Shown here: piece by piece, positions 25,160 through 46,167 of the stretch | Layout of the letters: the number at the start of each line of letters is the position of its first letter | Position numbering within the stretch: the first letter of the stretch is position 1 | Source of the DNA: a virus | Taxonomy: Duplodnaviria > Caudoviricetes | IMG/VR virus record: IMGVR_UViG_2645728093_000001 | Coordinates: 1-64,000 of that record | DNA: 64,000 nucleotides | Direction: 5' to 3' (one strand) | Translations under genes and position numbers: made by a program | The notes under the pieces: model-generated | What the model was told of the DNA's origin: nothing | What the model saw: only the letters and a program-made list of their open reading frames with translations | Database searches by the model: none

Positions 25160-25384
25160 ATGGCTGTTGATCATGATGCGCGCGCGCTGGAGCGGGAGCT
25201 TCAGCGCATCTTCGAAAGCCACGGTGTCCCGACCACGGAGATCGAGGGCGTCCATCACGTCGGGCTGTGCTCGACACGCCAGGTCGGTGACAAGGGTGGG
25301 CGCTACGTCCCGAGCATGCCGTCGAAGTCGGCCGCTGTCGCTCTGCCGACGCTGGCCAAGGACATTCTGGAGGCGCTTCGTTGA
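25160..25384 (+). CDS. Hypothetical protein
   Basis: Short coupled ORF. Confidence 0.45.
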   Translation: MAVDHDARALERELQRIFESHGVPTTEIEGVHHVGLCSTRQVGDKGGRYVPSMPSKSAAVALPTLAKDILEALR

Positions 25385-32216: not shown

Positions 32217-32401
32217 TGTCCCTCGGTCGATTTGCTCCCAATACTCGAGAGACCGCACCCGAGACGAAGGCCCGTGTCTGGCGCGAATACGGCTTGCTCG
32301 TTGTCGACGTCGACAAGGACCAACTGTCCTGGGATCAGCGAGAGATGCTGCGAGTCATCGGTCGGAAGATGTTCGGGCCGCGTAGAGAGGAAAAGCGATG
32401 A
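32216..32401 (+). CDS. Hypothetical protein
   Basis: Coupled ORF starting MSLGRFAP. Confidence 0.5.
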   Translation: MSLGRFAPNTRETAPETKARVWREYGLLVVDVDKDQLSWDQREMLRVIGRKMFGPRREEKR

Positions 32402-32967
32402 GCAGCAATCTGGTCTGTTCGTCGTGTCGCGGCCCAAATGACAGATCAAGTCACCGGTATTGTCATGGATGCGCGGCGGCCTACATGCGCCGGCGTAGGC
32501 GCGGTGAATTGCCCGTGCGCGCTACGGTGTGCACGGTTGCTGGTTGCGGGGAAAAGCAAAAGGCGCGAGGTTTTTGCAGCAAGCACTATTTGCGTTTTAA
32601 GCGCCGCGGATCGACTGACGAGCGCACTAGGACCATAGCGTCGAAGCGGTATCGGTTGGTGGTTATACGTGGTCATCCGCTAGCACATGCCCGGACCGGC
32701 AGAGTATACGTTCATCGCGCCGCAATGTTCGATCAGATCGGCCTCGGGCCAGTACCCTGCTTCTGGTGCGGAAGACCACTCCGATGGTCGACAGAGCACC
32801 CGCAGCCCGATGATGCGCTGTTGGTCGATCACTTCGATCATGATCGTCACAACAACGATCCAACTAACCTTCGGCCTTCGTGCAATTCCTGCAACTGCGC
32901 TCGAAGCTATTGGCGCGCCAAGCCGTCTCTCGTTCCGGTGTATCAAGTGGCAGGTGTCGGCACATGA
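32398..32967 (+). CDS. HNH endonuclease (free-standing type)
   Basis: C.V.GC...ARGFC.KHY, YVHR, VDHFDHDRHNN...NL..SC.SCN. Confidence 0.8.
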   Translation: MSSNLVCSSCRGPNDRSSHRYCHGCAAAYMRRRRRGELPVRATVCTVAGCGEKQKARGFCSKHYLRFKRRGSTDERTRTIASKRYRLVVIRGHPLAHARTGRVYVHRAAMFDQIGLGPVPCFWCGRPLRWSTEHPQPDDALLVDHFDHDRHNNDPTNLRPSCNSCNCARSYWRAKPSLVPVYQVAGVGT

Positions 32968-33244: not shown

Positions 33245-33589
33245 ATGGCTCGAAATCGCATCCCGACACTGGGCTCCCGTATCGCGACGCTGGATACCCG
33301 CAAGGCCAAGCCGCTGCCGAAGAAGGCCGACCCGCACTATCAGACCGCCGAGCACGAGGAGTGGGCAGAGTTTGTTAAGCGGCGCGCCGGCTATCGCTGC
33401 GAGCACGTCGACGACGGCAAGCGGTGCTGGCGCAGTGCCGAAAAGGGGTACCGGATGTACGCCGACCACATCAAGGACATCAAAGACCGGCCAGATCTCG
33501 CGCTCGATCGCGACAATGGCCGCTGCGCCTGCAGCTCGCACAACGTCCGTGCAGGCATCCAGGCGCGAGCAAACCGCATGAAATCGTAG
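33245..33589 (+). CDS. Packaging-associated HNH nuclease (HK97 gp74-like)
   Basis: HY...EH..W...V..RAGYRC, ADHI..IKDRPDLALD..NG...C.SH. Confidence 0.8.
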   Translation: MARNRIPTLGSRIATLDTRKAKPLPKKADPHYQTAEHEEWAEFVKRRAGYRCEHVDDGKRCWRSAEKGYRMYADHIKDIKDRPDLALDRDNGRCACSSHNVRAGIQARANRMKS

Positions 33590-33595
33590 GGGAGG

Positions 33596-33838
33596 GTGAG
33601 CATGAAGCTGAACGCGCGCGAACTCGAGCTTCAGGCGCTAAGAGTGCGCAGGTACGAGGCGGCGCAGGCCCTCAAGCGCGAGCTCGACGCCAAGGATGCC
33701 GCGGCGGTCGCGCAGGACGCGGCAGCCAAGCCCCCGGCGTCGGCGGCGAAGCCGGCCAAAAAGGCGGCTGCGAAAAGTAGGCGCAGCCGGGCCTCGAGCA
33801 AAATCGGCCGTAGCCGGGGATCTCGCAAGAAGTCGTAG
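33596..33838 (+). CDS. Small basic hypothetical protein
   Basis: GGAGG ribosome site; 3' end runs into the first island repeats. Confidence 0.45.
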   Translation: MSMKLNARELELQALRVRRYEAAQALKRELDAKDAAAVAQDAAAKPPASAAKPAKKAAAKSRRSRASSKIGRSRGSRKKS

Positions 33839-33846
33839 CCGGGGGA

Positions 33847-34056
33847 CTAACGGAGTCGCAGTTCGCGCTCGATCGCCGGTTGACGGTTCATGAGTTCCTG
33901 GACGCAGGGAGGGACGGGATCCTTCCGGCCCAGCGCGGCGCCGGTCGCCACCGCATCTGAGGCGCGGCGCGCAAGCTGCAGCCAACCGAATAGTGCAGCG
34001 GTCGGCATTGCCCGGATTTGGTCGAGATTAGGTGGCGTTGTCGTTGCAGTGAGCAT
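33847..34056 (-). CDS. Hypothetical protein, last gene of the island
   Basis: Stop codon abuts repeat B. Confidence 0.5.
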   Translation of the reverse strand: MLTATTTPPNLDQIRAMPTAALFGWLQLARRASDAVATGAALGRKDPVPPCVQELMNRQPAIERELRLR

Positions 34057-34104
34057 GCGCCGCTGGTGGCAGCAGGACTAGTCCGACAATCAGAGCCAGG
34101 CGCC

Positions 34105-34446
34105 TCATGCCTCTTCCTCGTCGATGTCGGCCGGCATCTGCCGAAGCTTCTGATATGGGAAGGCTCCGAGCTCGGGATGTAGCCGGTCCTCCTCGATCAT
34201 CGCCGCGGCAGCCATTCGCGCCGTTCCCTTCGCCTCCGGGAGCGTCATCAACGTCAGCGCGATCGGCACCCAGGTCGGAATGTCCTGAAGCTTCCCGTCC
34301 GCTCCGCTCCGGCCCCATCGGTTCACGGTGACAAGATTCTGGCACCATATCCTGGCGAAGGCTTTCCGTGTCAGGCCCTGCCGCTCAAGCTCGCGATCGA
34401 AATCCTCGCAGGCGATCTTCTTGTGTCTGAAGCGTGGCGGGGCCAT
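34105..34446 (-). CDS. HTH protein (Aca-like small regulator)
   Basis: EDFDRELERQGLTRKAFARIWCQNLVTVNRWG...IPTWV..AL; strong ribosome site preceded by hairpin A. Confidence 0.7.
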   Translation of the reverse strand: MAPPRFRHKKIACEDFDRELERQGLTRKAFARIWCQNLVTVNRWGRSGADGKLQDIPTWVPIALTLMTLPEAKGTARMAAAAMIEEDRLHPELGAFPYQKLRQMPADIDEEEA

Positions 34447-34568
34447 CACGGTCCTCCTTTTCGGTTGGGCACAGTCGCCCGAAATCGGCCGTAGCCGAGG
34501 GTATGGCGGATAGGTGGAGCGGAGTCGAGTCCGCGCCGGGCCGGCAAAATCGGCCGTAGCCGAGGGGG

Positions 34569-34934
34569 TCAAAGCCCCTTGAGCGGTGACACGAAGGACT
34601 TACCGTCCATCGCGATGGTCGAGATCTCGCCGGGCCCTTCGATCATGCGCAGCCATTCCCCCTCGGATCCGGTGAAGCCTGGCCCGGCCTCGACGTGGTG
34701 CGCGGCCAGCCACTTCGCGAGATCGCGCGCCGAGGCGCAGGGCGGGGAAAGCGGCGTGCCGGCGGTCGTCGTCTCGTAAAGCTGCCAGTGCGTGCAGGCC
34801 TCCGCCGGCCAGGCGGGCATCCGCTGATCGGTTGCCCGCGCCAGCGCGTCGTCCGCCTTGCGCAAGGGGATGTAACGCCGGCCGTTCTTGGGGTGCTGCC
34901 AGTCTGCCGGCACTCGCCTAACCTGCCTGCCCAT
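34569..34934 (-). CDS. Conserved hypothetical phage protein
   Basis: MGRQVRRVPADWQHP...WQLYETTTAGTPLSP...LAKWL. Confidence 0.7.
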   Translation of the reverse strand: MGRQVRRVPADWQHPKNGRRYIPLRKADDALARATDQRMPAWPAEACTHWQLYETTTAGTPLSPPCASARDLAKWLAAHHVEAGPGFTGSEGEWLRMIEGPGEISTIAMDGKSFVSPLKGL

Positions 34935-35212
34935 CAGAATAACGCCCCCTGGGCGGGTGGCGGCTCTGCAGCGGCAGCCAGGCGGCCGAGATGCTCGACC
35001 GTCTCGGCGATGATCCGCTCGCGGTCGTCGTCGACCAGCAGCCAACCATCATCACTGCCGGCGGGATCGTAAACCACGAAGTTGCCGCCCCATTTCGCAT
35101 GCACGCCTTCGGCAACCCGGCGGACGAATGGCGGGACGTCTGTAACCGCTTTGAAGTCGGCCCAAGACGCGATTTTGTAGCCGGCCGTGGCGATGATCTC
35201 CTCGGCGGTCAT
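34934..35212 (-). CDS. Hypothetical protein
   Basis: Coupled ORF. Confidence 0.65.
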   Translation of the reverse strand: MTAEEIIATAGYKIASWADFKAVTDVPPFVRRVAEGVHAKWGGNFVVYDPAGSDDGWLLVDDDRERIIAETVEHLGRLAAAAEPPPAQGALF

Positions 35213-35397
35213 GATCCGCCTCCCTCTGCGCGTTCGAGATTGGCCTGAAGGTCCCAGGCCTCATAGATAGCCCGTCGTGCCTCCGTGAGTTTCGCTCGCA
35301 CCTCCGGCAACAGCCGCTTGTCTTCGGCATCGACGACGCGCGCGACGGCGTCCAAAAGTCTATTGTAGACGTCCCAGTGGAATGGATGCTTCCGCAT
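35209..35397 (-). CDS. Hypothetical protein
   Basis: GAGGAG ribosome site; starts MRKHPFHW. Confidence 0.6.
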   Translation of the reverse strand: MRKHPFHWDVYNRLLDAVARVVDAEDKRLLPEVRAKLTEARRAIYEAWDLQANLERAEGGGS

Positions 35398-35460
35398 GCG
35401 GGATACTCCTCTCAAAAATCAGTCGTAGGGAAGGGGTGACGAAGTAGGCGCAGCCGGGGC

Positions 35461-35838
35461 TCAAATAAACCTGCCGCAATCGATGCACCGGCCGCGTCCG
35501 TCGTCGCGGTGCCGGCACGGCTTGAACGCTTCCGCCTCTGTGTCCGACCAAGCCCGCTCGGTTTCCGTGGCGATGTCCCAGCGCCCGCAGAACGAGGCGA
35601 GGTAAGCGCGCTGCTCTTCCGTCAGTTTTTCGTCGTGCAAGTGCTCGTCGGCGCTCCCCAGGTTGAGGCCTTGCTCCTGATTCCAGCGTGCATATTCCCG
35701 GATGAGCAGATTAATCGGGCCGTCGTCATTGCCTGGCAATTGCTCCGGTGCCGGCTTGGCATTGGCGCCGCCGAGCGCTTCGATGATGCCGGCGCGCGCG
35801 CCTTCGATTGGTCCGGAAAGCTTCTTGTTGTCGGTCAT
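35461..35838 (-). CDS. Hypothetical protein (C-terminal Cys motif)
   Basis: AAGGAGGA ribosome site; flanked by B repeats. Confidence 0.65.
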   Translation of the reverse strand: MTDNKKLSGPIEGARAGIIEALGGANAKPAPEQLPGNDDGPINLLIREYARWNQEQGLNLGSADEHLHDEKLTEEQRAYLASFCGRWDIATETERAWSDTEAEAFKPCRHRDDGRGRCIDCGRFI

Positions 35839-35897
35839 GGTCGGAATCCTCCTTTTGCAAAATTGGCCGTAGGCGAGGGGAAGGCGCAGCCGGGGGA

Positions 35898-37844
35898 TTA
35901 TCCCGGCGGCCCCTCGATCACGAGCAAGGCGGTATTCACGGAGGTCCCAGCATGCTTAAACGATCCCGCCGGGAGGTCGCGCCACTCCGAGGCAATCGGC
36001 ATCAGCTTGTCCCGCTGGCGCGGACCGTTGGCGCAGATCGCGACGAGCCGGCCGCCAGGTTTCAAAAATTTGCGGGCGTGCTCGATATGCTGGATGTCCG
36101 CGCCGCGCTCGAACGGCGGGTTCATGATGATGCGGTCGAACTTATCGACCGCGCCGGCCATGTCCATGAAATCAGCATTGATGATGGTCACGCCCTGCTG
36201 TGATCGGCCGAGAGTTTGCGCAACCTGGTGATTGATCTCAATCGCCACGATGTCGAGCGACCCGGCGCCATGGACGCGCGCGGCCTCGATGAGCGCACCC
36301 GTTCCCGCGCTTGGCTCCAAGATGCGATGGCCAGGCCTGATGTCGGCCAACTCTGCAACCTCGGCCGCGAGTTCGGGCGAAGTCGGGAAGAGTTGCGGCG
36401 CAACCACGACTTGCACGCCGCCGCCTTTCAGCATGGCCCGCATTGCCTCAAAATCAGCCGTAGGCGAGGCCGCCGGCAAATCGGCCGTAGCCGGGAGGGA
36501 GTCGAGCGCATCGACCAAGACGGGGCGCGGTGCAGGCGCAACCGGGGCCAGGGTAGCAGCTGGCTCGGCCGTTTCCTGCGGCTCGCCCATGATCTCCGAA
36601 ACCAGCGAAAGCGCGGCATCGAGATCGGCGTCCGGCGTCGCGACGTTCTCGCGGACGAATTCCGCCGGGCTTTGCGGTTGGCCGTGATCCTTGCTGTCAG
36701 TCAGATAGACCGCGACCAAAGAATGCTTGACCATAGCTGTGCGGAAGCGGTGCGACTTGTCCGCGCTCCACCGCGCGCCCTTATAGTCTTTGTTGATGCG
36801 CGCATATTCAGCCTTGGTCATATCGACTTGCGGATAGGTGGTGGTCCGGCCGCGGTCGTACATATTCGTTGTCGTGATTTCTCCGCCAGGGGCGCGATAA
36901 TTCAACAACGGCGGGAGTTCGCGACGCGGTTTCGGTGCCAGCAAGCCGGACGCGCCGGCCTCATCCAACATTGCGCGTTCATAGGCCAAGCGGTTTTCAA
37001 AATGCTCAATCCAGCGATCTTGATGAGGAATCGCGCGCTCATAACCCGGGATGGCGATGGCGGCGGCTTGCGCGGCGGTTATGACGTTACCGTCAATCGC
37101 TGACCAAAGCCCCATGGGGCCTTCATACTGCGAAGCGGGCGGGTCGCGCGGATAGTCGGCGAGCGGGAATGACATTGACCAATAGCCGCCCGCATTTGCA
37201 ACGGTTAGCCCGACCGCGCGCTGCTTCTCAGCATCATTGATGCCGGCCACGATTTGCCATGCCTTGATTTGCTTTTCGGCATTAGCCTTGCTGCGCTCGA
37301 CCTTGCGCTTTTCCGCCTCAATGGTCTTGATGCGACGCGCGCGCACTTCGGGGAGTTCTTTGTATTTCGCATGTGCCAGAGCGCCGGCGGCGCGCCCGGT
37401 CCAATATTGCGACGTCCGCCACATCTGCACGGCTTTGCGCATGCCGGCGTCAATCTTCTCCTTGTCGCGGCGTGCATGCTTCTCCGAATGGTGCCCGACG
37501 AGGATCGGCCGACCAAACGGGATATTGTCCGCGATCTCGGCAACGGCTTTGCGCGCGCGTTCCGCGTCGGCCATGCGCTTTTCGCTGTAGTCCTCAAAGC
37601 GCTCGGCGCGCTGCTCGGCGCGATCGACCAGGCTTGTATCCTCGTCACCGATCTCGCCGCAGAGCTCAATCAGCAAATCCTCGGCGGCCGGCGACCAGGA
37701 CGGCTTGACGAAGAGTTCCTGTTTCGGTGCCCATTTGAAGCCGAGCGCCTCGACGCGTGCATAGGTCTCGGCGTCCAAGCGCTGCGAGGCGTACAGGCGC
37801 AGCTTGTTGTCATCGGGCGAGTAAGTGGCGGAATAGGTGGTCAT
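35898..37844 (-). CDS. DUF3560 domain protein fused to an adenine methyltransferase domain
   Basis: ATYSPDDNKLRLY, IPFGRPILVGHHSEKHARRD; C-terminal FPTS, ILEPSAGTG, MNPPF. Confidence 0.88.
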   Translation of the reverse strand: MTTYSATYSPDDNKLRLYASQRLDAETYARVEALGFKWAPKQELFVKPSWSPAAEDLLIELCGEIGDEDTSLVDRAEQRAERFEDYSEKRMADAERARKAVAEIADNIPFGRPILVGHHSEKHARRDKEKIDAGMRKAVQMWRTSQYWTGRAAGALAHAKYKELPEVRARRIKTIEAEKRKVERSKANAEKQIKAWQIVAGINDAEKQRAVGLTVANAGGYWSMSFPLADYPRDPPASQYEGPMGLWSAIDGNVITAAQAAAIAIPGYERAIPHQDRWIEHFENRLAYERAMLDEAGASGLLAPKPRRELPPLLNYRAPGGEITTTNMYDRGRTTTYPQVDMTKAEYARINKDYKGARWSADKSHRFRTAMVKHSLVAVYLTDSKDHGQPQSPAEFVRENVATPDADLDAALSLVSEIMGEPQETAEPAATLAPVAPAPRPVLVDALDSLPATADLPAASPTADFEAMRAMLKGGGVQVVVAPQLFPTSPELAAEVAELADIRPGHRILEPSAGTGALIEAARVHGAGSLDIVAIEINHQVAQTLGRSQQGVTIINADFMDMAGAVDKFDRIIMNPPFERGADIQHIEHARKFLKPGGRLVAICANGPRQRDKLMPIASEWRDLPAGSFKHAGTSVNTALLVIEGPPG

Positions 37845-37948
37845 GCTCGAAAGCTCCTTTCAGATTGCGCACAATCGCGCGGGGATGCGGTTCATAGGGG
37901 GCCCGCTGAATCTCGTCAACGGGAAAATCAGTCGTAGCCGAGGGGAAA

Positions 37949-38131
37949 TCAATCGTAGCCGGGAGGGCGCAACTCCGGGTGCACTCGGTAGAGCATCGCA
38001 TAGGCGGCATCGCGCGACCGGTGCGCGGAAGTACCGAGCTTGGTGATACTGAGCCAGTCGCCGGCCCATCGCCCGGGGACTTCACTGGCGAGACAGACGC
38101 GCGGTTTGTTGGCCTTGCTTTTCTTTGCCAT
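37949..38131 (-). CDS. Small hypothetical protein
   Basis: Starts MAKKSKANK; 3' end overlaps repeat B. Confidence 0.45.
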   Translation of the reverse strand: MAKKSKANKPRVCLASEVPGRWAGDWLSITKLGTSAHRSRDAAYAMLYRVHPELRPPGYD

Positions 38132-38250
38132 GTGATCAGGCCTGGATTTCGTGGCTTTCGATGATGCAGGCACCATCGAAGGATTCTTCCCAAAGGGCGG
38201 AGATAGCCTCAGCGCCCAACGTGTCGAGATTGTCGGGCATCGGCTTAGCC

Positions 38251-38964
38251 TTATAGCCAGTCCGCAGCCTCGCGCGCGGCGGCGAGCGCTTTGGCTTCCG
38301 TCGCAAAGGCCTCCGTGCCAATCCCCATGTTGTCGCCGTCGGTTGTCAGCGTCCAAACCGTCACGCCGGAAGGCGCAACCGAGGGGGCCGCGGCGCCAGG
38401 CGGGAGCAAAGCGGCATACGCCTTGATCGCGCTCGCGACGGCATCCGCGGCGCGCGCCAATGCCTCGTTTTGCGTGCCGTCGTCGGTCGTCATTTCCGCC
38501 CGCATGGCGTCGCGGTGCGTCTCGGCGATGGATTCCCATGAAGGCGCAGCCGGGGGAGTGTGCGCCTTGAGACGATCCGCGAGCGCTTCCCAGCGCGGAA
38601 TCCATGCGCCGTCTGCAGCCGCGCGCGCGTGGCGGAGGCTGGATTCTACCGCCATCAACAAATGCTGACGTTCCGGCTCGGTGAGCGGCGAAGCGGCATC
38701 GGGCGCCGGCATGGGCCGCAGTGCCTCGCCTTCAAGGCTGATAGAGTCCTCCGGCCATTCCGTGCCGTCATGAGCGACGAAAAGCGATTTCCCGCGCGCG
38801 TCCGTCGTTGTGTGCTGGCCGTCCCAGCACACTTTGGTTTCGTCCATGTGGTTGAATTCGAGCGACCCGTCAGGATTTCGGCCTGTGATCTCGCACCAGG
38901 CGTTGCCGGGGATGAGATCGGCGGTTGCAACGATCTCGCTGCCGGTCGGTGAAAATGCTTTCAT
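38251..38964 (-). CDS. Hypothetical protein
   Basis: Hairpin A and ribosome site precede MKAFSPTG. Confidence 0.7.
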   Translation of the reverse strand: MKAFSPTGSEIVATADLIPGNAWCEITGRNPDGSLEFNHMDETKVCWDGQHTTTDARGKSLFVAHDGTEWPEDSISLEGEALRPMPAPDAASPLTEPERQHLLMAVESSLRHARAAADGAWIPRWEALADRLKAHTPPAAPSWESIAETHRDAMRAEMTTDDGTQNEALARAADAVASAIKAYAALLPPGAAAPSVAPSGVTVWTLTTDGDNMGIGTEAFATEAKALAAAREAADWL

Positions 38965-39066
38965 GATGTTTCGTCCTTTCGCTTTGCGCACTATCGCGCG
39001 TCGGGAAATCAGCTGCAGCCGGGGCTGCGGGTCATCAACGGGAAATCGGCCGTAGCCGAGGGGCGG

Positions 39067-39345
39067 CTAGAGATTCACCTCGTGAAAGCCGGACGCGCCA
39101 GGAAGCTTTTTGAAACCAGGCGGGGAGCGATCGCGGCGGCCGATCCGCATTGACACAACGGCCGGCTTTCCGGTTGCCGCGACGTCGGCGCGGTAAGTCT
39201 CGAATTCGCGCGCGGCGTCCGCGGCGCGCTGTATTTCGACGGTGCGGCCGGGGAACGGCAGCGCGTCGCCGGACAAGCAAAGATGAACCGAAACGAAAGC
39301 GCCGTTACGCTCGGCCGGATAGCTGCTCAGGATCAATTTAGCCAT
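39067..39345 (-). CDS. Hypothetical protein
   Basis: Hairpin A and ribosome site upstream; stop abuts repeat B. Confidence 0.7.
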   Translation of the reverse strand: MAKLILSSYPAERNGAFVSVHLCLSGDALPFPGRTVEIQRAADAAREFETYRADVAATGKPAVVSMRIGRRDRSPPGFKKLPGASGFHEVNL

Positions 39346-39429
39346 TGGGTTAGCTCCTTTCATGGTGCGCACGATTGCGCGTGAAATCGGCCGTAGCCGA
39401 GGGGTTGAGGAAATCAGACGTAGCCGGGA

Positions 39430-39843
39430 CTAGGCCGCCGCGGCGCGCTCCGCCGGCAACTCTTTGGTTTGCGCGACGTCGAAAACCGGGACCATGACGA
39501 AACGGACGGTTGGCGCCTCGGCCGCCTCCGCCGCGCCGGCTTCATTGCTCGGCGCCGAGGCCTCGGCCTTCCGCGCGCCAGTCGGCGCAAAGATGTAAAG
39601 CGCGCTTTGACCTTCCTGGACAACGCGACCGGCCGCAATCCATTGCTGGAAGCCGCCGACCATGGTTGCGGTCTGGCATTGCAGCGCGGCCAAAAGTTGA
39701 TTGTTGCCGGACAACGCGCTGCCGTCGATTGTCAGGATCGGGACGCGCGCCAGCCATTGCGCCTTTTGTTCATCCGTCATGTTGGCAATCTGTTGCGCCA
39801 ACTGGCGCGCCTTTTCTTTGTTCGGGTTCTCTTTCTTCCGCAT
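39430..39843 (-). CDS. ArdC N-terminal-like ssDNA-binding protein (anti-restriction associated)
   Basis: S.NNQLL...Q...AT.VGGFQQWIAAGRVVQEGQSALYIFAP...F..VPVFDVAQT. Confidence 0.75.
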   Translation of the reverse strand: MRKKENPNKEKARQLAQQIANMTDEQKAQWLARVPILTIDGSALSGNNQLLAALQCQTATMVGGFQQWIAAGRVVQEGQSALYIFAPTGARKAEASAPSNEAGAAEAAEAPTVRFVMVPVFDVAQTKELPAERAAAA

Positions 39844-39898
39844 GTCGTTTGCTCCTTTCGATTTGCGCACAATCGCGCGATGGAAACGGCCGCGCCGA

Positions 39899-40096
39899 TT
39901 ACTTCCAGGCCTTTGCGATGCGAAGTCCGCCGCCGTCGATAACGTCGCGGGGTTCAAGGCTGGCCAATCCCTCGGCCTCGAATTCGCGCGCCGCGGTTTC
40001 AAACCTATGGCCAGGGTAAAGCAAGACTCCGCCCGGCGCGGCTTGCTTCAATGCGCCAAACAACGCGTTACGTTCTTTAATCGAGGCCTTCCGCAT
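39899..40096 (-). CDS. Small hypothetical protein
   Basis: AAGGA ribosome site following repeat B. Confidence 0.55.
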   Translation of the reverse strand: MRKASIKERNALFGALKQAAPGGVLLYPGHRFETAAREFEAEGLASLEPRDVIDGGGLRIAKAWK

Positions 40097-40158
40097 TTCT
40101 TATCCTTCCGAAATTGGCCGTAGCCGAGGGGGACGCAAAATCAGCCGTAGCCGAGGGG

Positions 40159-41220
40159 TTAGGCCGAGGCGCCAAATCGAGGCGCAACCGGGAGGCGCGC
40201 GATCGGCGCGCCGAGCGATGTTGACGCGAGAAAGCGCGCGGCCAGGCGAGGCGCCGCGGAACGCGCGGCCGGCGCGACGTCCGCCGCGGCCGGTTGCTCG
40301 GCCCGCGCCTCGGCCGCCGTTACCAGCCGGAGGCGCGGCGCCTCGGCCTCGGCCGCCGCAATCCGCGCGCGGCGCCTTTCGAGATAGGCCGCGACCCGCG
40401 CGGCCTTTGCCTCGGCCTTTGCGGCCGCCTCGGCTTGCCGGCGCGCCTCGGCCTCGGCTTTATCGATGGCACGGCGCCGCGCGCCAATCTCAAAATTGCA
40501 CATGCCGGAAAGCCGGAGGCGGCAATCCTCAACCGTTGCCGCCAGCTCGGCCGCGGGGGTTTCATCTGCGCCGGATTGCTCGGCCTCGGCCATCGCGATT
40601 CGGTAATGAACCCGCCAGAATTCGGCGCGCGTTACGGCACCGTCCGGCGCCTTCTCAGGTATTGCCTCGGCCTCGGCCGCAAGCGCGGTTGCGTCGAATG
40701 TGCCGCGGCGCGCCTCGGCCGTCCGTTCGCTGCAATCGGTAGCGTCGAATTCGGCGCCGTTGTCGCACGCGATGGAAGCGATTGCAGGGATTGTGACGAT
40801 ATCGGAATCAGCGGAAAAGGCGCCGGCCGTCCGAGCAATGCGCGCGCGGTAATAAGCGAAAGCAATCCGGAGGCCTCGGCCAATGTTTAGCGGCTTGCCA
40901 GGCAATGAAACGGCCGGCGCGCGGACAACGGCGCCGCATGCGAACGTGACAGTAAGCACGGGCGATTTACCAAGCCGCCGGCCGTTCGCGGATTGCGGAA
41001 TGGCATAATCGGCCCATGGTGCGAAACGGCTTTCCGGCGCCTCGGCCGAGGCTTTGGGCGCGGCTTTGGTGGCAGGGATAGCCAATCGCAGCAAATCCGC
41101 AACGGCGCGCCAGTTAGCCGCGCCAGGATCCTGACAAGCATTGTCATAGGCGAGAATGGCCAGGCCTTTACGTTCGGAGGCTTTCGCCGCGCGCGCGGCC
41201 GTCAAATCAATCTGATGCAT
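40159..41220 (-). CDS. Ala-rich hypothetical protein (353 aa)
   Basis: Hairpin A and ribosome site precede MHQIDL; stop abuts repeat B. Confidence 0.7.
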   Translation of the reverse strand: MHQIDLTAARAAKASERKGLAILAYDNACQDPGAANWRAVADLLRLAIPATKAAPKASAEAPESRFAPWADYAIPQSANGRRLGKSPVLTVTFACGAVVRAPAVSLPGKPLNIGRGLRIAFAYYRARIARTAGAFSADSDIVTIPAIASIACDNGAEFDATDCSERTAEARRGTFDATALAAEAEAIPEKAPDGAVTRAEFWRVHYRIAMAEAEQSGADETPAAELAATVEDCRLRLSGMCNFEIGARRRAIDKAEAEARRQAEAAAKAEAKAARVAAYLERRRARIAAAEAEAPRLRLVTAAEARAEQPAAADVAPAARSAAPRLAARFLASTSLGAPIARLPVAPRFGASA

Positions 41221-41287
41221 GGGAAACGTTCCTTTCGAGTTGCGCACAATCGCGCCGGTTGGATTGCTCGGCCGAGGCCGAGGCGGA

Positions 41288-41587
41288 TTAGCTCTGTAGT
41301 TTGGCCAGGCGCCGCGCGTCGATTGCGGCGCGAATCTCTTTCTTGAACCGGCCGGCATATTGGCCATGAAACGTGCGGGACGTTGCTACCGCGCGATCTA
41401 GCGCAAGCTTTGCGGTCCGGTAGCGCGGCGCGAATTTGATAGCATCGGGGGTCAATCCCATTGCACCGCGCGCGGGAATTCCGAGCTCGGCCGCCAATGT
41501 GTCCCGGATTGCGTCATGGCATGCCGTTGCGTCGCGCAAGGCTTGCTCTAGTGTGGCCGAGGCGGCTTGATACTCTGCAAACGTCAT
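41288..41587 (-). CDS. Hypothetical protein
   Basis: GAGGGG ribosome site; G.MGLTPDAIK motif. Confidence 0.65.
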   Translation of the reverse strand: MTFAEYQAASATLEQALRDATACHDAIRDTLAAELGIPARGAMGLTPDAIKFAPRYRTAKLALDRAVATSRTFHGQYAGRFKKEIRAAIDARRLAKLQS

Positions 41588-41601
41588 TGCCTGGTTTCCC
41601 C

Positions 41602-41940
41602 TCAATAGCCGGCCGCCTCGGCCGCATAATCCCGCTGGCCAGTTTCGCCCGGTTGCCAATCGGGAAACCGCGCGCCGTTTTCCGTATCGTCATAACCGGC
41701 CGCCAATCGGTCCGCGGGACAATGGCAGCTGCCATGCTGGGTTAGCCGGCCGTCACAATCGGCGCCGTCTTTGCACCAATCGTTGACAACGGTCCGCCCG
41801 TCGAATGAAAACGCATTGCTTTCGCGGTGCCATCCTTCGTCCGTGCGGCCGCCGTGCGAATGGTGCAAGGTCTGGCCGGACCGAATCTTGATCTTGACCA
41901 ATCCAGACTTGTGATAATGCCAGAAGCGCGCGGTTTGCAT
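41602..41940 (-). CDS. Hypothetical protein
   Basis: GAAAGGA ribosome site; TDEGW...DCDG...QRDYAAEAAGY. Confidence 0.7.
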   Translation of the reverse strand: MQTARFWHYHKSGLVKIKIRSGQTLHHSHGGRTDEGWHRESNAFSFDGRTVVNDWCKDGADCDGRLTQHGSCHCPADRLAAGYDDTENGARFPDWQPGETGQRDYAAEAAGY

Positions 41941-41954
41941 GCGGCGGTATCCTT

Positions 41955-42296
41955 TCAAGGTAATGCGTTGAAATTGGTCCGATAGGTCGCGGCTTCCAAG
42001 ACGCAACGTCGCGCGGCTTCCAGATTGATAACGCGCCCCATGGGATAGCGTTGCGCGGTCCGCCTATATTCCGCCGCCCATGCCAAAGCGTCCACCGCCA
42101 ACGCGCGCCTAGGCCGCTCAGAAAGGCGAGATGTACGGAGGTAGTAGCGCGGCATGCGGCCGGGCGGACGTTCTGCCGTAATGATAAAGCGGACTCCGCC
42201 CGCAACGAAGTCGCGGCCGATTCCGTACTGTTGAACGGCCGCGCGGGTTTCCGCTCGCAAGCCTTGCATCAGTTTCCGATAAGCCGCGCGATTCAT
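41955..42296 (-). CDS. Hypothetical protein
   Basis: ATGA-coupled to the upstream gene. Confidence 0.6.
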   Translation of the reverse strand: MNRAAYRKLMQGLRAETRAAVQQYGIGRDFVAGGVRFIITAERPPGRMPRYYLRTSRLSERPRRALAVDALAWAAEYRRTAQRYPMGRVINLEAARRCVLEAATYRTNFNALP

Positions 42297-42691
42297 GCCG
42301 CTTGCTCCATTTCGCAAACCGGAGTCCAACCCGTGGCCACGTCATAAGAGGCCGCGCGCGCGATCATGGGCGGCCGGCGCAATTCATCGTCCGCCGCAAT
42401 TATGCCGTAGCGTTCCGGCGCCGCGTCAAGTTTGGCCATTTGCGCCATGTGCTCGGCCGCGCGCCAGGCATTGAAGGCCGCGACGATATCAGCCGGCAAT
42501 GGATCAATGCTGCGCACAAGCATTCCGATTCCCGTCCGCATGGCGCGGCGGACGTCGTCACCGTTCGCAATCGACAGCTCATAATCCGAGACGCTGTGAC
42601 GGATTGAGGCCTCAAAGGTTTCGGTCGCGGTTGTGACGCGATAGTAAACCGTTCCCATGAATGAGCATTGCCATTTGAAACGTGGAGTCAT
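42293..42691 (-). CDS. Hypothetical protein
   Basis: Hairpin A and ribosome site upstream. Confidence 0.7.
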   Translation of the reverse strand: MTPRFKWQCSFMGTVYYRVTTATETFEASIRHSVSDYELSIANGDDVRRAMRTGIGMLVRSIDPLPADIVAAFNAWRAAEHMAQMAKLDAAPERYGIIAADDELRRPPMIARAASYDVATGWTPVCEMEQAA

Positions 42692-42728
42692 GGTCTAGCC
42701 TTTCGAGTTGCGCACAATCGCGCGGGTT

Positions 42729-42971
42729 CTATTCGGAAAAATACGGTTTGCGGTCCCCAGCCTTGCGCGCCTCGGCCTTCGTTCTATTGTCAAGCCTTCC
42801 TTCGCACGCGCAAAGATGCATTAGGCAAGCGCCGAGTTCCGACGCGGCGTCACCGTAGTTAAGCCCGCGCTTTATTTGCTTTCCATACTGGACCGTGAAT
42901 TGGTCGAATCCGGTTTGGATCAATCGAACGGGGAAGCCGGAGGAAAGCTCTTCAAAGCAAACATTTCGCAT
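42729..42971 (-). CDS. Hypothetical protein
   Basis: GGAGG ribosome site; FTVQYGKQ...L.Y..AA.ELG.C.MH motif. Confidence 0.7.
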   Translation of the reverse strand: MRNVCFEELSSGFPVRLIQTGFDQFTVQYGKQIKRGLNYGDAASELGACLMHLCACEGRLDNRTKAEARKAGDRKPYFSE

Positions 42972-42974
42972 GCT

Positions 42975-43172
42975 TTAGCCTCCCGTTGCTTCGTCAAAGC
43001 GCGCGGCTTCAAAATCGCGGCTAGCTTGCTCGGCCTCGGCGCCGGTCAACATGGCGCGGGAGGTAGGATAGTAGAAAACGCGCGTTCCCTTTGGGATGAA
43101 AACCCCTTTCCTATCACTGCCGGGATATTTGGTAATGATCCATCGCGGATCGCCGCCGACATGCTTTCGCAT
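42975..43172 (-). CDS. Hypothetical protein
   Basis: Hairpin A and ribosome site upstream; DPRWI.TKYPG motif. Confidence 0.7.
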   Translation of the reverse strand: MRKHVGGDPRWIITKYPGSDRKGVFIPKGTRVFYYPTSRAMLTGAEAEQASRDFEAARFDEATGG

Positions 43173-43263
43173 TAGGTTTCCTTTCGAGTTGCGCACAATC
43201 GCGCGTTTGGTCCGCCGTGGCGTTCCGTTGTACGGCGCAACGCGGCGCCCCACCGTCGGAACG

Positions 43264-43368
43264 TCAAAGGCAAGAATTCAGAAATGCACGCTTGCCGCTA
43301 CGTGCGACCAATCGGCGAGTCCGCTTATCGTTCGGCTTGCGGTCAGTCTCATGACGGGCATAACGCAT
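43264..43368 (-). CDS. 34-aa basic peptide
   Basis: Hairpin A and ribosome site upstream. Confidence 0.55.
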   Translation of the reverse strand: MRYARHETDRKPNDKRTRRLVARSGKRAFLNSCL

Positions 43369-43461
43369 AGTCGTTTCCTTTCGTGGTTGCGCACAATTGC
43401 GCGGTTTCGGCGGTTTGCCGGCTAAGCCGAGGCGCTGCGGCCTCGGCTTAAACTGCAAACC

Positions 43462-43698
43462 TTAGCTGATACGCTCGCAAGCGCCGTTTTTGGGATTCCA
43501 GCTAATCAACATATCGCCAACCCGGACCGAATAGCCGCGCGACATACGAACGGCGCGCGGTGCGGTCCGGCCGGTTTGCTGCAGCCAACGGCCGCAATCC
43601 CAAGCAATGCCCGATGCACTCGAATGATAGAAAGGATTCCGCGCCTCGGCCGGCGCCTCGAAACCCTGTTTTACCTCGGCCGTCAAATCGGTTGCCAT
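43462..43698 (-). CDS. Hypothetical protein
   Basis: GAGG ribosome site; starts MATDLTAEV. Confidence 0.6.
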   Translation of the reverse strand: MATDLTAEVKQGFEAPAEARNPFYHSSASGIAWDCGRWLQQTGRTAPRAVRMSRGYSVRVGDMLISWNPKNGACERIS

Positions 43699-43708
43699 GG
43701 TCGCGGCC

Positions 43709-43894
43709 TCAAATCGCGATTGCAACGGCAAGGCGCGCGGTGCGGATAGCGTCAATGCGGCGCGCCGGAATGGTGCGATCCGCCGCGGCGATCCGTTCGG
43801 CCAGGCTGATAAGACGGTGCGCGAGGCCGAGGCGGCCGAGCTCGATTGCGTTTGCAGCGTCTAGCAAAAGGCCTTTAACGGTATTGTTTCGCAT
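43709..43894 (-). CDS. Hypothetical protein
   Basis: Hairpin A and ribosome site upstream. Confidence 0.65.
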   Translation of the reverse strand: MRNNTVKGLLLDAANAIELGRLGLAHRLISLAERIAAADRTIPARRIDAIRTARLAVAIAI

Positions 43895-43938
43895 GGTCGT
43901 TTTCCTTCTGAGTTGCGCACAATCGCGCGGGTTGAAAC

Positions 43939-44097
43939 TTAGTAGCGGTTGCGGCGCCGATAGCTCGGCCGGCGCCTCCGGACCGGCGCGCCATATTCGA
44001 CGGCCGCAAGCGCGAGCCAACCGACAACGGCCAGGCCGAAAAGAAACGTTGCCGGCAACATCGGGTTGGCGATGCAAAAGGCGATAAAGGCTTGCAC
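43939..44097 (-). CDS. Small membrane peptide with basic tail
   Basis: GTG start with AAGGG ribosome site; one transmembrane segment. Confidence 0.5.
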   Translation of the reverse strand: MQAFIAFCIANPMLPATFLFGLAVVGWLALAAVEYGAPVRRRRPSYRRRNRY

Positions 44098-44107
44098 GGT
44101 GCGCCCC

Positions 44108-44332
44108 TTAAGCAATCGGCCGCGATTGATCGGCAGAGACTTCGCACAAAACAACGCGATAGAAGGCGCGGGAATTGCGCGGGCGATCTCCGCCGCGAAC
44201 GGCGGAGAAGGCAAGGCGCCGATACATTGCCTCGAAAGCATCAGCCGACGATTTGAGGAAAAGGCGCGCGGTCCAATCGCAACCGGTCAAGGTGCAGCGA
44301 AAGCGGATGTCAAAGGCTTGGCGGCGGGACAT
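44108..44332 (-). CDS. Hypothetical protein, first hairpin-led gene of the island
   Basis: Hairpin A and ribosome site upstream. Confidence 0.6.
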   Translation of the reverse strand: MSRRQAFDIRFRCTLTGCDWTARLFLKSSADAFEAMYRRLAFSAVRGGDRPRNSRAFYRVVLCEVSADQSRPIA

Positions 44333-44379
44333 GTTCGGGCCTTTTCGGTTGCGCACAATCGCGCGTTTCGTGTCCCGCA

Positions 44380-44482
44380 CATGCCTATATCAGCGGCCGG
44401 CCGTCAAGAGGGAAAATGCAATTCAGTGAAAAGAATTTGCGAAAAGCCGGCAACGGCGCCGTTTATGTCACTATCTAGTGAC
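44380..44482 (-). promoter_or_regulatory. Putative island promoter and palindromic operator
   Basis: CTTGACG on minus (44402-44408) with an AT-rich upstream tract, but the -10 match is weak; perfect inverted repeat GTCACTA-TC-TAGTGAC at 44467-44482. Confidence 0.45.
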
Positions 44483-44516
44483 GGCCGAGGCCTCTAGTAG
44501 TTCGGCCGCGGCTGGA

Positions 44517-44828
44517 TCATTCGCGCATTGCCTTATGCACTCGGCCGAGGCGCCGGACGTCCGCCCATGCATCCGCCGCGCCGATACCGGCAAGCACGGC
44601 GCGACATTTAAGGCCTAGCTCGGCCGTCCCGCCGTTCTGCCGTGCAGCTGTGACGGTATTCGGCGAGATGAATAGAACGGCCGCGGCCTCCCCATTGGAA
44701 AGGTCTAACTCGGCTTGCCATGCCTGGAATTCGGCCGCCGTGATTCGCAGTGCGGTGGCGGCCGAGGCATAGGCGCGGGACCGCGCCAGGGTTTTGCCGG
44801 TTGCGTGCTTTCGAGGCTTAGACGTCAT
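44517..44828 (-). CDS. HTH protein (Aca-like small regulator)
   Basis: ITAAEFQAWQAELDLSNGEAAAVLFISPNTV...LKCRAVLAG. Confidence 0.7.
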   Translation of the reverse strand: MTSKPRKHATGKTLARSRAYASAATALRITAAEFQAWQAELDLSNGEAAAVLFISPNTVTAARQNGGTAELGLKCRAVLAGIGAADAWADVRRLGRVHKAMRE

Positions 44829-45057
44829 TGCTTTTCACTCCGCCGTGACTCTTCCCAGGTATCTCAGCCGGCAACTATCACAAATCAGGGAATGGCCGAG
44901 GCCTCGGCTTGCAATCGTCCCCGGGTTTTGCGCGGAACCCGATTTGACAACCGACTCCGCAACTGATTCAGAATAGGCACGGTGATGGATTGTCACTGAA
45001 GCAAGCCCGCCAGGCACAAGCCGCGGCGGGCTTTGTGTTTGGCGGAGGCGCCAGCCC

Positions 45058-45324
45058 ATGGCAGAGCACGACAAGCCCGCCATTCTAACCCGCTATTGGC
45101 AGCCAACAGGCCGAACGCGTATGCGCACCGGATGGTTTGGCTTGCTCGTTATCGAGGTGCTGCAGGAACGCGTTGCCATGGTGGGAAAGCGTTGCGAACA
45201 TCAGGCACGCTGGCGCCGTGCATCGCGTGGCCAGGTCGTAACGTTCGGGCAGGGTAGCACGGTGCGCCCCCATGTCCTCGATACCGTCAACCCGCACCGT
45301 TACGACTTCGTCCGCCGTGGGTGA
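45058..45324 (+). CDS. Hypothetical protein
   Basis: GGAGG ribosome site; TGRTRMRTGWFGLLVIEV motif. Confidence 0.55.
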   Translation: MAEHDKPAILTRYWQPTGRTRMRTGWFGLLVIEVLQERVAMVGKRCEHQARWRRASRGQVVTFGQGSTVRPHVLDTVNPHRYDFVRRG

Positions 45325-45719
45325 TATCGTCGGCTTTAGGCCGGCAGCTGGCCGGCCACATGATCGGCCGGCCTTAGAGCGCGGCGCCGTCGGTAGCGTT
45401 GTGGCACTGCCCGTTATCAGGATTGAGCGGGACGCAACGGCCGACGCATGGGACGGCTTGCCAAGTGACAGCGCCCCGCACCATGCGGCGCTATGGCCAG
45501 AGCAGAGCTAGGCGCCGAGGCCTCGGCGCTTGCCTGCCACGTCAACCCGTCACTACCAGACAACGCTAGCCGTAGAGGCGAGGGATTGCCGCGCGGCGCG
45601 GCGCGCCGGCTTGCCAGGTACCACCATAGCCGCCTCGGCCAGGCCTTAGCATCGCATCAATCGGGCGAAACGAGGCAAAACAGCCCCAAACCCGGCCGTT
45701 TCGCCAGCAAAAGCCGCCC

Positions 45720-45840
45720 ACCACCCCGGGGGGGGTGAATTCCCGGGCAAACCGCGGGGGGCCGACCGCCAGGGGTCTCATTTGGAGATTTTTTTGGGGC
45801 GGCCGAAATTTTGGGCTCTGGCGTCATTTTTGACGATTTC
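45720..45840 (+). other. Probable cos/packaging initiation region
   Basis: G-run...GACCGCC...CTCA...AGATTTTTT pattern resembles non-coding cos regions before HK97-type terminases; lies just upstream of terS. Confidence 0.55.
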
Positions 45841-45858
45841 GAGAAAAACGGGAAATCC

Positions 45859-46167
45859 ATGCGCAGCACCGGTCAGACGAAAGCGATGGTCGAAAAGCTG
45901 CCTGAGACCGGCTCGGTCGTCGTGGTGCATACCGACCCGCTGCGATCGCATGTCCGCGACATGATCCTGACCCTGCGCGGATCCGAGGTGCTTGGACGCA
46001 CTCGGATCGAGGTGATCAAGAACCGCGAGGCTGCGGATCGGTTGGTCGGCCTGCGCGTGCCCGTGTTCGTTGACCACGCCTTCGCCGACCATGTCAGCCG
46101 TGAGACCGCATCTGCGGTTCGGGCTTTGGCCGACGGGACGAACTCGATGTTCCGGAAGGCCGGCTAA
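45859..46167 (+). CDS. Hypothetical protein
   Basis: Starts MRSTGQTKAM; immediately before terS. Confidence 0.55.
   Translation: MRSTGQTKAMVEKLPETGSVVVVHTDPLRSHVRDMILTLRGSEVLGRTRIEVIKNREAADRLVGLRVPVFVDHAFADHVSRETASAVRALADGTNSMFRKAG

Follow-up and report, generated by a model that had tools for sequence, protein, structure and literature searches.

In phage T7 the early operon is punctuated by RNase III sites, carries the anti-restriction gene 0.3 first, and enters the cell stepwise, driven by transcription. In T4-type phages, conserved regulatory repeats called promoter-early stem-loop (PeSL) cassettes have been described as the joints of insertion, deletion and replacement in hyperplastic regions (Arbiol et al. 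2010, PMC2839356; Comeau et al. 2014, PMC4122927). The regulators Aca2 and Aca1 are described as binding both promoter DNA and RNA hairpins that stand beside the ribosome site in 5'-untranslated regions (5'-UTRs), thereby controlling anti-CRISPR operons (PMC13551039). The leading regions of conjugative plasmids are reported to hold anti-defence islands in which methyltransferases are prominent; the main text of that report does not name ArdC, DUF932 or DUF3560 (Samuel et al. 2024, PMC11541004). Here we describe a gene island that can be compared with each of these systems. It lies in the first 64 kb of the 80,032-bp IMG/VR virus record IMGVR_UViG_2645728093_000001 (linear; CheckV completeness 89%), a stretch that we call the window. 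The island comprises 25 to 26 plausible minus-strand open reading frames (ORFs), running from position 44828 down to 33847, and two short repeat families, motif B and motif A. An earlier note on this DNA had described about 25 co-oriented minus-strand genes between 33.8 and 44.8 kb together with two dedicated repeat families, and all of these were found in place.

Our best explanation as a whole, to which we assign a probability of about 0.55, is that of a hypervariable island with plasmid-type cargo and a probable terminal position, in which B and A are portable linkers, B acts on the mRNA, and shuffling takes place at the repeats. Genes or small gene groups would be joined by these linkers and transcribed one way from two predicted σ70-like promoters, one just after the gene F6 and the other before a DUF3560-methyltransferase gene. 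As a 5'-proximal hairpin, B could stabilise or insulate each translation start. It would most likely also be a shared operator for an island-encoded Xre/Aca-like helix-turn-helix (HTH) protein, with F6 as the first candidate and F4 as the second. Motif A would occupy the stretch between a stop codon and whichever B copy or ribosome site follows. Cassettes are gained, lost and moved at the B and A joints, as with PeSL cassettes, and the recognisable cargo is of the establishment and anti-restriction type known from conjugative-plasmid leading regions. A terminal island that reads inward would be available early after entry. The system is PeSL-like in its evolution and probably Aca-leader-like in its regulation.

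Motif B reads TTGCGCACAATCGCGCG on the plus strand. On the gene strand it takes the form (C)GCGC(G/A)-A-N-N-G-UGCGC-AA, followed by GAAAGG(A) and then by the start codon. When up to 3 mismatches were allowed, the window held 12 matches against 1.15 expected, and none of 100 shuffles reached 12. Eleven of them are on the gene strand, between 34465 and 44365, and precede 11 genes, about half of the genes of the island; the twelfth, on the opposite strand at 41390, is probably due to chance. In the whole 80,032-bp record, a search at up to 2 mismatches gave 9 forward matches, none in reverse and none in the control, and both repeat families are one-stranded and restricted to the island. A scan of the 64-kb window for structure and context together (5-bp stem, ANNG loop, AA or AC, Shine-Dalgarno (SD) sequence, start codon) returned exactly the same 11 minus-strand sites and no plus-strand site.

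The motif was then located in other records and genomes. The exact 16-mer of B occurs in 42 IMG/VR stretches, among which those with several copies belong to records classed as proviruses and measuring about 100-130 kb. Five related provirus records carry 6-11 clustered B matches each on a single strand, with one extra, distant opposite-strand match in G001, and the same repeat grammar is present in G007-G010. Scanning one genome per species (185,579 species) for B with its SD sequence gave 17 stretches, in which the multi-copy cases were all Bradyrhizobium (B. embrapense SEMIA 6208, sp. C9, sp. Leo170 and sp. Ai1a-2). Single copies were found in B. elkanii WSM2783 and Rhodopseudomonas palustris BisB18, the remaining singletons being in unrelated taxa. 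When 3 mismatches were allowed, a wider set of 80 loci of the same TerL clade (597 kb) gave no more than 7 matches resembling B and 2 resembling A; those resembling B that were checked, in four of these loci, had no SD context. Single B matches in unrelated viral and genome contigs and in the TerL-clade loci, which lack SD context or island genes, were taken as chance. The lineage is one of large temperate, probably cos-type Bradyrhizobium phages with records of about 80-130 kb; a megablast search of the island against GenBank phages gave no match.

Six islands were compared in detail, namely that of the window and those of the relatives L059-L063, with 20 kb taken around the island of each relative. 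A regular-expression search gave 64 hits, from which two with neither hairpin nor SD sequence (L060 9963 and L062 11798, in oriented coordinates) were dropped, leaving 62 B sites. The SD core lay 4-7 nucleotides (nt) past B in all 62, and at exactly 5 nt in 42. The start codon followed 15-21 nt past B, an ORF of at least 30 codons came after it in 59 of the 62, and B always shared the orientation of its gene. Because of the fixed distance to the SD sequence and the strict co-orientation with the gene, we read B at the RNA level. The earlier note had proposed that a shared cis code organises the island, and the counts of B and A, their confinement to one strand and the fixed SD context bear this out.

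Alignment of the six islands gave 58 distinct rows, and pairing is complete in them, with 290 of 290 stem cells paired. At pair 5, 42 rows have G-U and 16 have A-U, and a single row has G-U at pair 1; in all six islands the copy before the F12 gene closes with a perfectly paired A-U. At pair 2, 54 rows have C-G and 4 have G-C, which amounts to one both-sided change. The variant stem, GGGCG...UGCCC, stands before F4 and is kept in the window, L059, L061, L062 and L063; it was also seen in G008 and is more diverged in L060. Little or no variation is seen in the stem, at the first and fourth loop positions (A6 and G9) and in the 3' AA, and the two central loop bases drift. This pattern speaks for sequence-specific recognition by a factor.

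We examined whether B coincides with promoters. The hexamer TTGAC[AG] was present within 60 nt upstream of 14 of the 62 B copies and at 37-42 nt upstream of 11, and 5.5% of background windows hold such a hexamer. Six of those 11 copies are the first B of each of the six islands, where the hexamer lies 40-42 nt upstream, and the other five precede the DUF3560 gene, in five of the six islands. If a −10-like hexamer is taken to follow after a spacer of 16-17 nt, the predicted transcript start falls 0-5 nt before B. The internal promoter of the window consists of TTGACG (37919-37914), a 17-nt spacer and TATGAA (37896-37891). The remaining 51 copies come after stop codons, other hairpins or A copies, and share no conserved upstream sequence. 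A role for B as a general promoter was rejected, as a consensus promoter scan returned zero and the hexamer stands at the right distance in so few copies. Since only two σ70-like promoters per island precede B, it is best read as an mRNA-level element, placed at the 5' end of two predicted primary transcripts and just upstream of internal ribosome sites. No match to σ70 region 2 was found in the record; a search for a T7-type RNA polymerase was empty, but equally so in every control genome, and is uninformative.

Several results weigh against the placement of B on the mRNA. Predicted folds of the intergenic regions are not more stable than those of shuffled sequences (in all ten regions z lay between −1.13 and +0.95). 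The change at pair 2 is a single inherited event at one orthologous site, before F4. The U at stem position 10 is never C in the 58 distinct rows, so that pairing alone does not account for the conservation of B, and a near-invariant stem with variable central loop bases also fits the palindromic DNA operator of an HTH dimer. On that alternative B would be a 14-bp near-palindrome, GCGCRA-NN-GTGCGC, to which an F6 or F4 dimer binds, repressing the promoters and forming roadblocks within the operon, with the hairpin only incidental. The arms are invariant around two variable central bases, the half-site centres are 10 bp apart, B lies at the predicted transcript start of both promoters, F4 has its own symmetric variant site, and Xre/Aca-type folds bind DNA. 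We nevertheless regard a purely DNA-level operator as unlikely. The 51 copies without a promoter-like hexamer at the right distance do not fit it, and a transcriptional operator would need neither a fixed distance to the SD sequence nor the orientation of the gene, both of which hold at every site. In addition, the left arm has G or A opposite an invariant T, which gives G-U or A-U pairs in RNA and is an asymmetry in DNA. Binding to DNA is also compatible with our best explanation, as Aca2 binds both DNA and RNA.

We then considered which protein might read B. Two probable Xre/Aca-like HTH genes, F4 and F6, bracket the array, as judged at the level of fold for F4 and from a weak sequence match for F6; the earlier note's HTH gene near each end is thus recovered, through a structural model in one case and with weak sequence support in the other. 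The AlphaFold2 (AF2) model of F4 has an Xre-type HTH fold (pLDDT 87). Foldseek returned only weak Xre-type matches to it (HigA2, Aca1, Aca2, MqsA and Aca10; E 0.25-2.2), and its structural neighbours, all at middling Z scores, were Aca2 (Z 7.9; root-mean-square deviation 1.7 Å over 55 residues), Aca1 (Z 7.3) and Aca10 (Z 6.8). The 50 homologues of F4 are all hypothetical proteins, and those with an organism name are all from Bradyrhizobium but one. F6 matched the Pfam family Xre-like-HTH at E 0.0095, below the cut-off, and XRE regulators in the PDB at E 0.09-0.1; its HTH-like pattern is conserved in 11 aligned relatives, and a word-based search gave one homologue only. F6 is the only HTH gene that accompanies B in every island whose promoter-proximal part was examined, the distant G010 included, and because of this co-occurrence it is the first candidate reader of B. 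The first 12 kb of G010 contained no match to F4 or F12.

The likeness to the Aca systems consists in a small Xre-type HTH gene encoded together with the cargo and in a conserved leader hairpin that adjoins the ribosome-binding site. Aca2 and Aca1 are also the nearest solved folds to the F4 model, a likeness that is confined to the fold and to Z scores below 8. The systems differ in that the hairpin here precedes 11 cistrons of one island, whereas Aca leaders occur once or twice, and in that no anti-CRISPR gene was recognised in the island by Pfam, PHROGs or NCBIfam, no anti-CRISPR library having been searched.

The comparison of relatives that the earlier note had proposed, with gene swaps expected between conserved repeats, showed that gene content differs and that the junctions fall at the repeats. 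Gene families do not keep one order in the six islands. Of the 22 ORFs called in the window, 5 are unique to its island and 3 are common to all six; in L060, 13 of 21 ORFs are its own. The F7 module comes before F15-F17 in the window and after them in three relatives, while L063 lacks F15-F17 and L062 lacks the F18-F28 block. Three clean indels had their joints 0-5 nt from a B or A copy. Between L062 and L063, 2.58 kb present in L063 is bounded by an A copy and a B copy. Between L059 and L062, 2.2 kb of L059 lies between two A pairs that both align to a single pair of L062. Between L061 and L063, the 1.1-kb F15-F17 segment of L061 is flanked by two B copies, both aligned with a single B of L063. 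Overall, a motif lay no more than 40 nt away from 38% of 418 alignment ends and from 14% of random positions. Joints of DNA runs with sides shorter than 30 letters were ignored as unreliable, and contig breaks at repeats in the DNA runs X2-X4, which are expected from any repeat, were not used as evidence. To judge from these alignments, B and A are the joints for the gain, loss and movement of cassettes, a role that they can play because they recur in one orientation.

In this respect the island resembles the PeSL regions. Both have short regulatory repeats between the small, mostly orphan genes of a variable region, and in both the joints of indels and replacements between relatives coincide with the repeats. 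The composition differs, however. A PeSL consists of a strong σ70-like early promoter and a terminating stem-loop, a combination that is absent here: B is without a promoter in most of its copies (51 of 62) and has its hairpin fixed beside the ribosome site, and the second repeat, A, is a paired direct repeat with no kept hairpin and no enrichment of terminators. PeSL repeats are also associated with mini-circles, which form by exchange between neighbouring copies. The phage differs too, being temperate and probably cos-type with an alphaproteobacterial host. The earlier note had called the system undescribed. No published account of the system of these phages was found in the literature searched, whereas repeats acting as shuffling joints are already known as PeSL.

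Junctions that fall exactly at the repeats would also be expected if B had no partner in trans and were simply a portable ribosome-site cassette, made up of a hairpin insulator and an SD sequence, with A as a spacer and the identity of the copies kept by recombination or gene conversion. The lineage specificity of the motifs, the small hairpin of unremarkable energy and the precedent of PeSL cassettes (PMC2839356, PMC4122927) agree with such a view. It does not explain why A6, G9 and the 3' AA stay invariant or nearly so amid drifting neighbours, as homogenisation would not single out bases. The variant before F4 has been kept at its orthologous site in several relatives and has not been homogenised, and two HTH genes are conserved alongside the array. 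We therefore hold a cassette without a trans partner to be quite unlikely.

Motif A, AAATCGGCCGTAGCCGAGG on the plus strand, is a paired 19-nt direct repeat found between a stop codon and the next ribosome site. Between 33801 and 40156 the window has 11 matches to it, every one on the same strand, where 0.03 would be expected. A degenerate pattern gave 76 copies in the six islands: a second copy comes 25-29 nt later in 23 of them, B follows in 10, an SD sequence with its start codon comes next in 19, and none of these does in 24. Many copies begin 1-15 nt past a stop codon. Two subtypes, TCCCGGCTACGATCGATTT and CCCCTCGGCTACGGCCGATTT, tend to pair. RNase E-type sites have a consensus to which the GAUUU end of A may be likened. 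As a sequence motif, A might be a processing site of this type or a weak attenuator, both of which are guesses. Two structural roles tried for A found no support. Variants of A do not keep the small UACG-loop hairpin of the consensus, which speaks against a covarying hairpin, and terminator-like sites were not enriched (16 found, 16.3 expected), which speaks against an intrinsic terminator.

The last result bears on the proposal that B is a nut/boxB-like antitermination signal, read by the arginine-rich peptide F12, that lets RNA polymerase past the A elements. Among the island's proteins F12 is conserved best (identities between islands of 76-100%, against 37-61% for F6), and its arginine-rich character may resemble that of the motifs of lambdoid N proteins. 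B is a 5-bp hairpin, as is boxB, and A copies recur downstream of it. Yet A is no convincing terminator, B is tied to ribosome sites and not to promoter-proximal positions, F12 is far shorter than known N proteins, and the first 12 kb of G010 has B copies with no F12. We find antitermination very improbable as the function of B.

Further observations concern the way in which genes are grouped. Within B-delimited modules, several genes overlap stop to start by 1-4 nt (at 42293-42296 and 35209-35212, in the areas 34934-35212 and 41602-42691). These overlaps suggest translational coupling within modules, with B or A at the module borders. Degenerate A-like copies were seen at 38369-38386 and 38540-38557 inside the 237-aa (amino acid) ORF, which may be composite or mis-called. 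Two in-frame A copies at 36451-36496 lie in the inter-domain linker of the DUF3560-methyltransferase, and homology with relatives resumes exactly at these copies (the protein has 648 aa in the window and 766-787 aa elsewhere). An origin of the 648-aa gene by read-through across an A-bearing spacer was rejected, as a homologue on the plasmid pDCB1 has the same two-domain order without A at the DNA level. The second linker copy overlaps a conserved coding stretch, which also counts against that origin.

As to cargo, two island proteins belong to recognisable families. The ArdC-like protein matched ArdcN at E 1e-5 (26.2 bits against a cut-off of 22.6), with residues 11-114 covering positions 7-118 of the 123-position profile, and phrog_7245, annotated as anti-restriction protein, at 1.4e-4. 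Its length is the same in four relatives, and G010 has a 134-aa form. The DUF3560 protein matched Pfam DUF3560 at 2e-35 and has in addition a class-I methyltransferase domain; its nearest PHROGs are domains of very large phage proteins, and in G010 its two halves are in different frames. The DUF3560 domain matched at least 5000 plasmids, at identities of up to 71%, and 4083 of the best 5000 are predicted to be conjugative. On pDCB1 (MOBF, MPF_F), the 659-aa homologue is co-oriented with genes for a C5 methyltransferase, a PLD-family protein, SSB, DUF932, KleA and RadC. These plasmid matches uphold the view of the earlier note that the recognisable cargo is typical of conjugative plasmids. When nine cargo proteins of relatives were also tested, the only informative family was DUF932, in L060.

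Three results on the cargo count against our best explanation. The ArdC-like protein is without the C-terminal metalloprotease half, having no second domain in its 137 aa. About 20 island ORFs have no match in Pfam, PHROGs or NCBIfam. The same three collections named no anti-CRISPR or Ocr/ArdA-type protein, and no anti-defence library was searched. An Atlas search with F8 gave nothing usable. For a few of the genes, an anti-defence function is a reasonable guess from their families. Rfam found no family in the island at its gathering threshold or at E up to 1, apart from a chance-like sR4 match at 36285-36345 on the plus strand. Genes were called with a simple ORF picker, by which short ORFs and start codons are uncertain. 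Plus-strand ORFs within the island were rejected as antisense shadows, for example those overlapping the Pfam-supported 648-aa gene.

Compared with the leading regions of conjugative plasmids, the island likewise has co-oriented genes, which may lie at the end that enters first; those recognised code for an orphan methyltransferase and for ssDNA-related and DUF proteins. It differs in that phage DNA enters double-stranded, not as a transferred single strand, and no single-strand promoter of the Frpo/ssi type is expected.

The position of the island on the virion DNA was approached through contig ends. The metagenomic contig G010 (104,614 bp, linear, CheckV completeness 100%) starts 489 nt before F6 and reads into B copies, ArdC-N and DUF3560. 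Its other end has a TerL gene that reads inward, and a terS-like ORF begins about 45 nt from that end. This layout puts both ends of the contig within the spacer between F6 and terS. In 48 of the 80 TerL-clade loci, a contig end was found within 4 kb upstream of TerL, and 31 of these 48 ends lay within 800 nt of it (9.6 expected, p about 2e-11), 20 of them at 300-540 nt. One of the contigs that end upstream of TerL, G012, is a 65-kb record classed as complete. The pile-up of ends at 300-540 nt (loci L084-L163) could be used to predict cos positions for the clade from metagenomes.

In phage lambda the end that is packaged last is ejected first. A possible likeness of the present phages to HK97-like cos packaging lies in a putatively cos-type TerL, HNH genes and contig ends clustered upstream of terS; in HK97-type systems an HNH protein is described as assisting cos cleavage (PMC9410871). 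The contig ends fit a cos site just upstream of terS, as in HK97-type systems. In that case the island would probably occupy the other end of the virion DNA, the one packaged last and away from terS, and would read inward. Its entry ahead of the terS end, which the earlier note also proposed, would follow by analogy with lambda. Against an end position, the same contig ends might arise where assemblies break at a variable hotspot, the position being drawn from one contig and from contig-end statistics. The earlier note's placement of the island at the genome end, with inward transcription, thus receives indirect support from the ends of G010 and of the TerL-clade contigs, which such breaks could mimic. 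Its statement that the HNH and terS genes are normally adjacent does not hold as a rule in this lineage, as the HNH homologue of G010 directly follows TerL and does not stand before the island. The HNH protein next to the island is 64-75% identical in four of the five relatives (L060-L063), and no homologue was found within the 20 kb taken for L059.

With T7, the island would share an early polycistronic unit that reads inward from the end entering first, a conserved RNA element that separates its cistrons, and genes against restriction, all of which are predicted here. The elements themselves differ, those of T7 being long RNase III hairpins and B a small 5-bp hairpin.

Early use after entry has to be weighed against expression in the prophage state. 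Contigs from a soil metatranscriptome match the window at 33965-34488, 34638-35220 and 35822-36447 (with at most 4 differences) and at 45261-45575. In this run (X20), 10% of the sampled words were present, the uncovered parts are uninformative, and neither strand nor level is given. The contigs cover only the distal part of the island (33965-36447); they could reflect prophage-state expression, which would count against early use, or DNA carry-over. The island might then be a prophage-expressed moron or maintenance cluster, serving for example the methylation of host or prophage DNA or the fitness of the lysogen, and not a first-injected set of counter-defence genes. Such a cluster would suit the fact that the island has predicted promoters and HTH genes of its own, separate from those of the late and replication operons, and that two further methyltransferases are encoded elsewhere in the window. 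We consider this rather unlikely, in that the RNA library may hold DNA, the cargo families are those of plasmid establishment regions, and early use would agree with a probable place at the genome end and an inward reading direction. The island could also have both roles.

A bolder form of our best explanation is that the island is a phage 'leading region'. The first-ejected cos end would carry exchangeable plasmid-type establishment and counter-defence cassettes, held in one post-transcriptional regulon of 5'-UTR hairpins that is read by the Aca-like F6 or F4, with F4 set apart by its compensated hairpin variant. If this were true, a single element would give burst-then-shut-off expression of any newly captured gene. 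We regard this full combination as doubtful.

The features of the island and its surroundings are collected in Table 1. The Toprim primase and DnaB helicase genes, like the beta clamp gene, are plus-strand and upstream of the island. With the MT-A70, C5 and island N6-type enzymes, the phage has three DNA methyltransferase genes, a heavy investment in self-methylation. TerL is 48-60% identical to the TerL of Labrenzia vB_LagS-V1, Burkholderia Bcep176 and similar phages. In the alignment of six relatives, the control region beyond F6 (44829-45111) contains a conserved GC hairpin and conserved promoter-like blocks, including a TTGACA directed towards terS and a TGTGATAG box directed towards F6. 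An Rfam match to Bp2_287 at 45000-45111 is sub-threshold (E 0.002, 29.4 bits against a gathering score of 70). The spacer between F6 and terS measures 1.35 kb in the window, with four small plus-strand ORFs (45058-46167), and about 530-600 nt in relatives. Only the last of the four (45811-46167) has a strong coding signal, with a GC content at third codon positions of 0.78.

Table 1. Coordinates of the island features and of neighbouring genes in the 64-kb window
Feature	Position	Strand	Remarks
MT-A70 methyltransferase	22153-22770	+	upstream of island
DNA polymerase III beta clamp, all three domains	24027-25154	+	replication module, upstream of Toprim primase and DnaB helicase
C5 methyltransferase	25381-27315	+	upstream of island
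HNH-type gene, first of tandem pair	32398-32967	+	recognised by eye
HNH endonuclease gene	33245-33589	+	HNH signature by eye in translation; last recognisable gene of rightward replication-side operon, converges on island
Three A-like copies at convergent junction, island 3' end	33774-33846	-	
Last island ORF, 69 aa	33847-34056	-	no family found
F4, Xre/Aca-like HTH (predicted), 113 aa	34105-34446	-	in all six islands
Variant motif B before F4	34465-34481	-	A copy directly precedes at 34482-34500
F21 (121 aa); F10 (92 aa); 62-aa ORF	34569-34934; 34934-35212; 35209-35397	-	stops and starts overlap or abut
125-aa ORF	35461-35838	-	phrog_9962 (function unknown); A copies on either side
DUF3560 + N6-type methyltransferase, 648 aa	35898-37844	-	Pfam, PHROGs, plasmid homologues; NPPF motif by eye
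Internal σ70-like promoter (predicted) and B (37881-37865)	37865-37919	-	before DUF3560 gene
Pair of A copies	37925-37966	-	
237-aa ORF	38251-38964	-	unique to window island; B upstream at 38984-39000
Pair of A copies	39002-39061	-	
F18, 92 aa	39067-39345	-	B (39365-39381) and A pair (39384-39429) upstream
ArdC N-domain-only protein, 137 aa	39430-39843	-	B upstream at 39863-39879
65-aa ORF (39899-40096) and tandem A pair (40111-40156) upstream of it	39899-40156	-	
F8, 353 aa	40159-41220	-	no family found; in 5 of 6 islands; B upstream at 41240-41256
Four-ORF module F15, F16, F17, F2 behind a single B (42708-42724)	41288-42691	-	two gene junctions overlap
F7 (65 aa) and unique 80-aa ORF behind B (43189-43205)	42729-43172	-	module elsewhere in relatives
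F12, 34-aa arginine-rich peptide	43264-43368	-	B (43387-43403) with perfectly palindromic stem
Variable proximal cassettes: F14 and F25 behind B (43913-43929); F29 behind B (44349-44365)	43462-44332	-	
Uncertain ORF among proximal cassettes	about 43939-44097	-	
Main island promoter (predicted) and first B	44349-44407	-	TTGACG 44407-44402
F6, Xre-like HTH (predicted), 103 aa	44517-44828	-	upstream of main promoter
Divergent control region	44829-45057		between F6 and rightward genes toward terS; six-relative alignment
terS candidate	46179-46691	+	position and composition only; Pfam empty
TerL	46695-48407	+	Pfam TerL_ATPase and TerL_nuclease
Portal	48467-50089	+	downstream of TerL

For the biology of these phages, the finding would place a temperate cos phage, with a nitrogen-fixing symbiont as its host, beside the lytic T4-type phages as a case of cassette shuffling at repeats, here with a repeat that probably acts in translation and not as a promoter. 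The 62 natural copies of B and the one compensated variant would provide a test case for the control of many cistrons by an Xre/Aca-type HTH protein through one RNA operator. The cassette of B and its SD sequence could also be a portable expression element for Bradyrhizobium. Finally, some 20 orphan genes bracketed by a recognisable code are candidates for counter-defence or establishment functions in Bradyrhizobium, in which phage-host conflict has been little studied.

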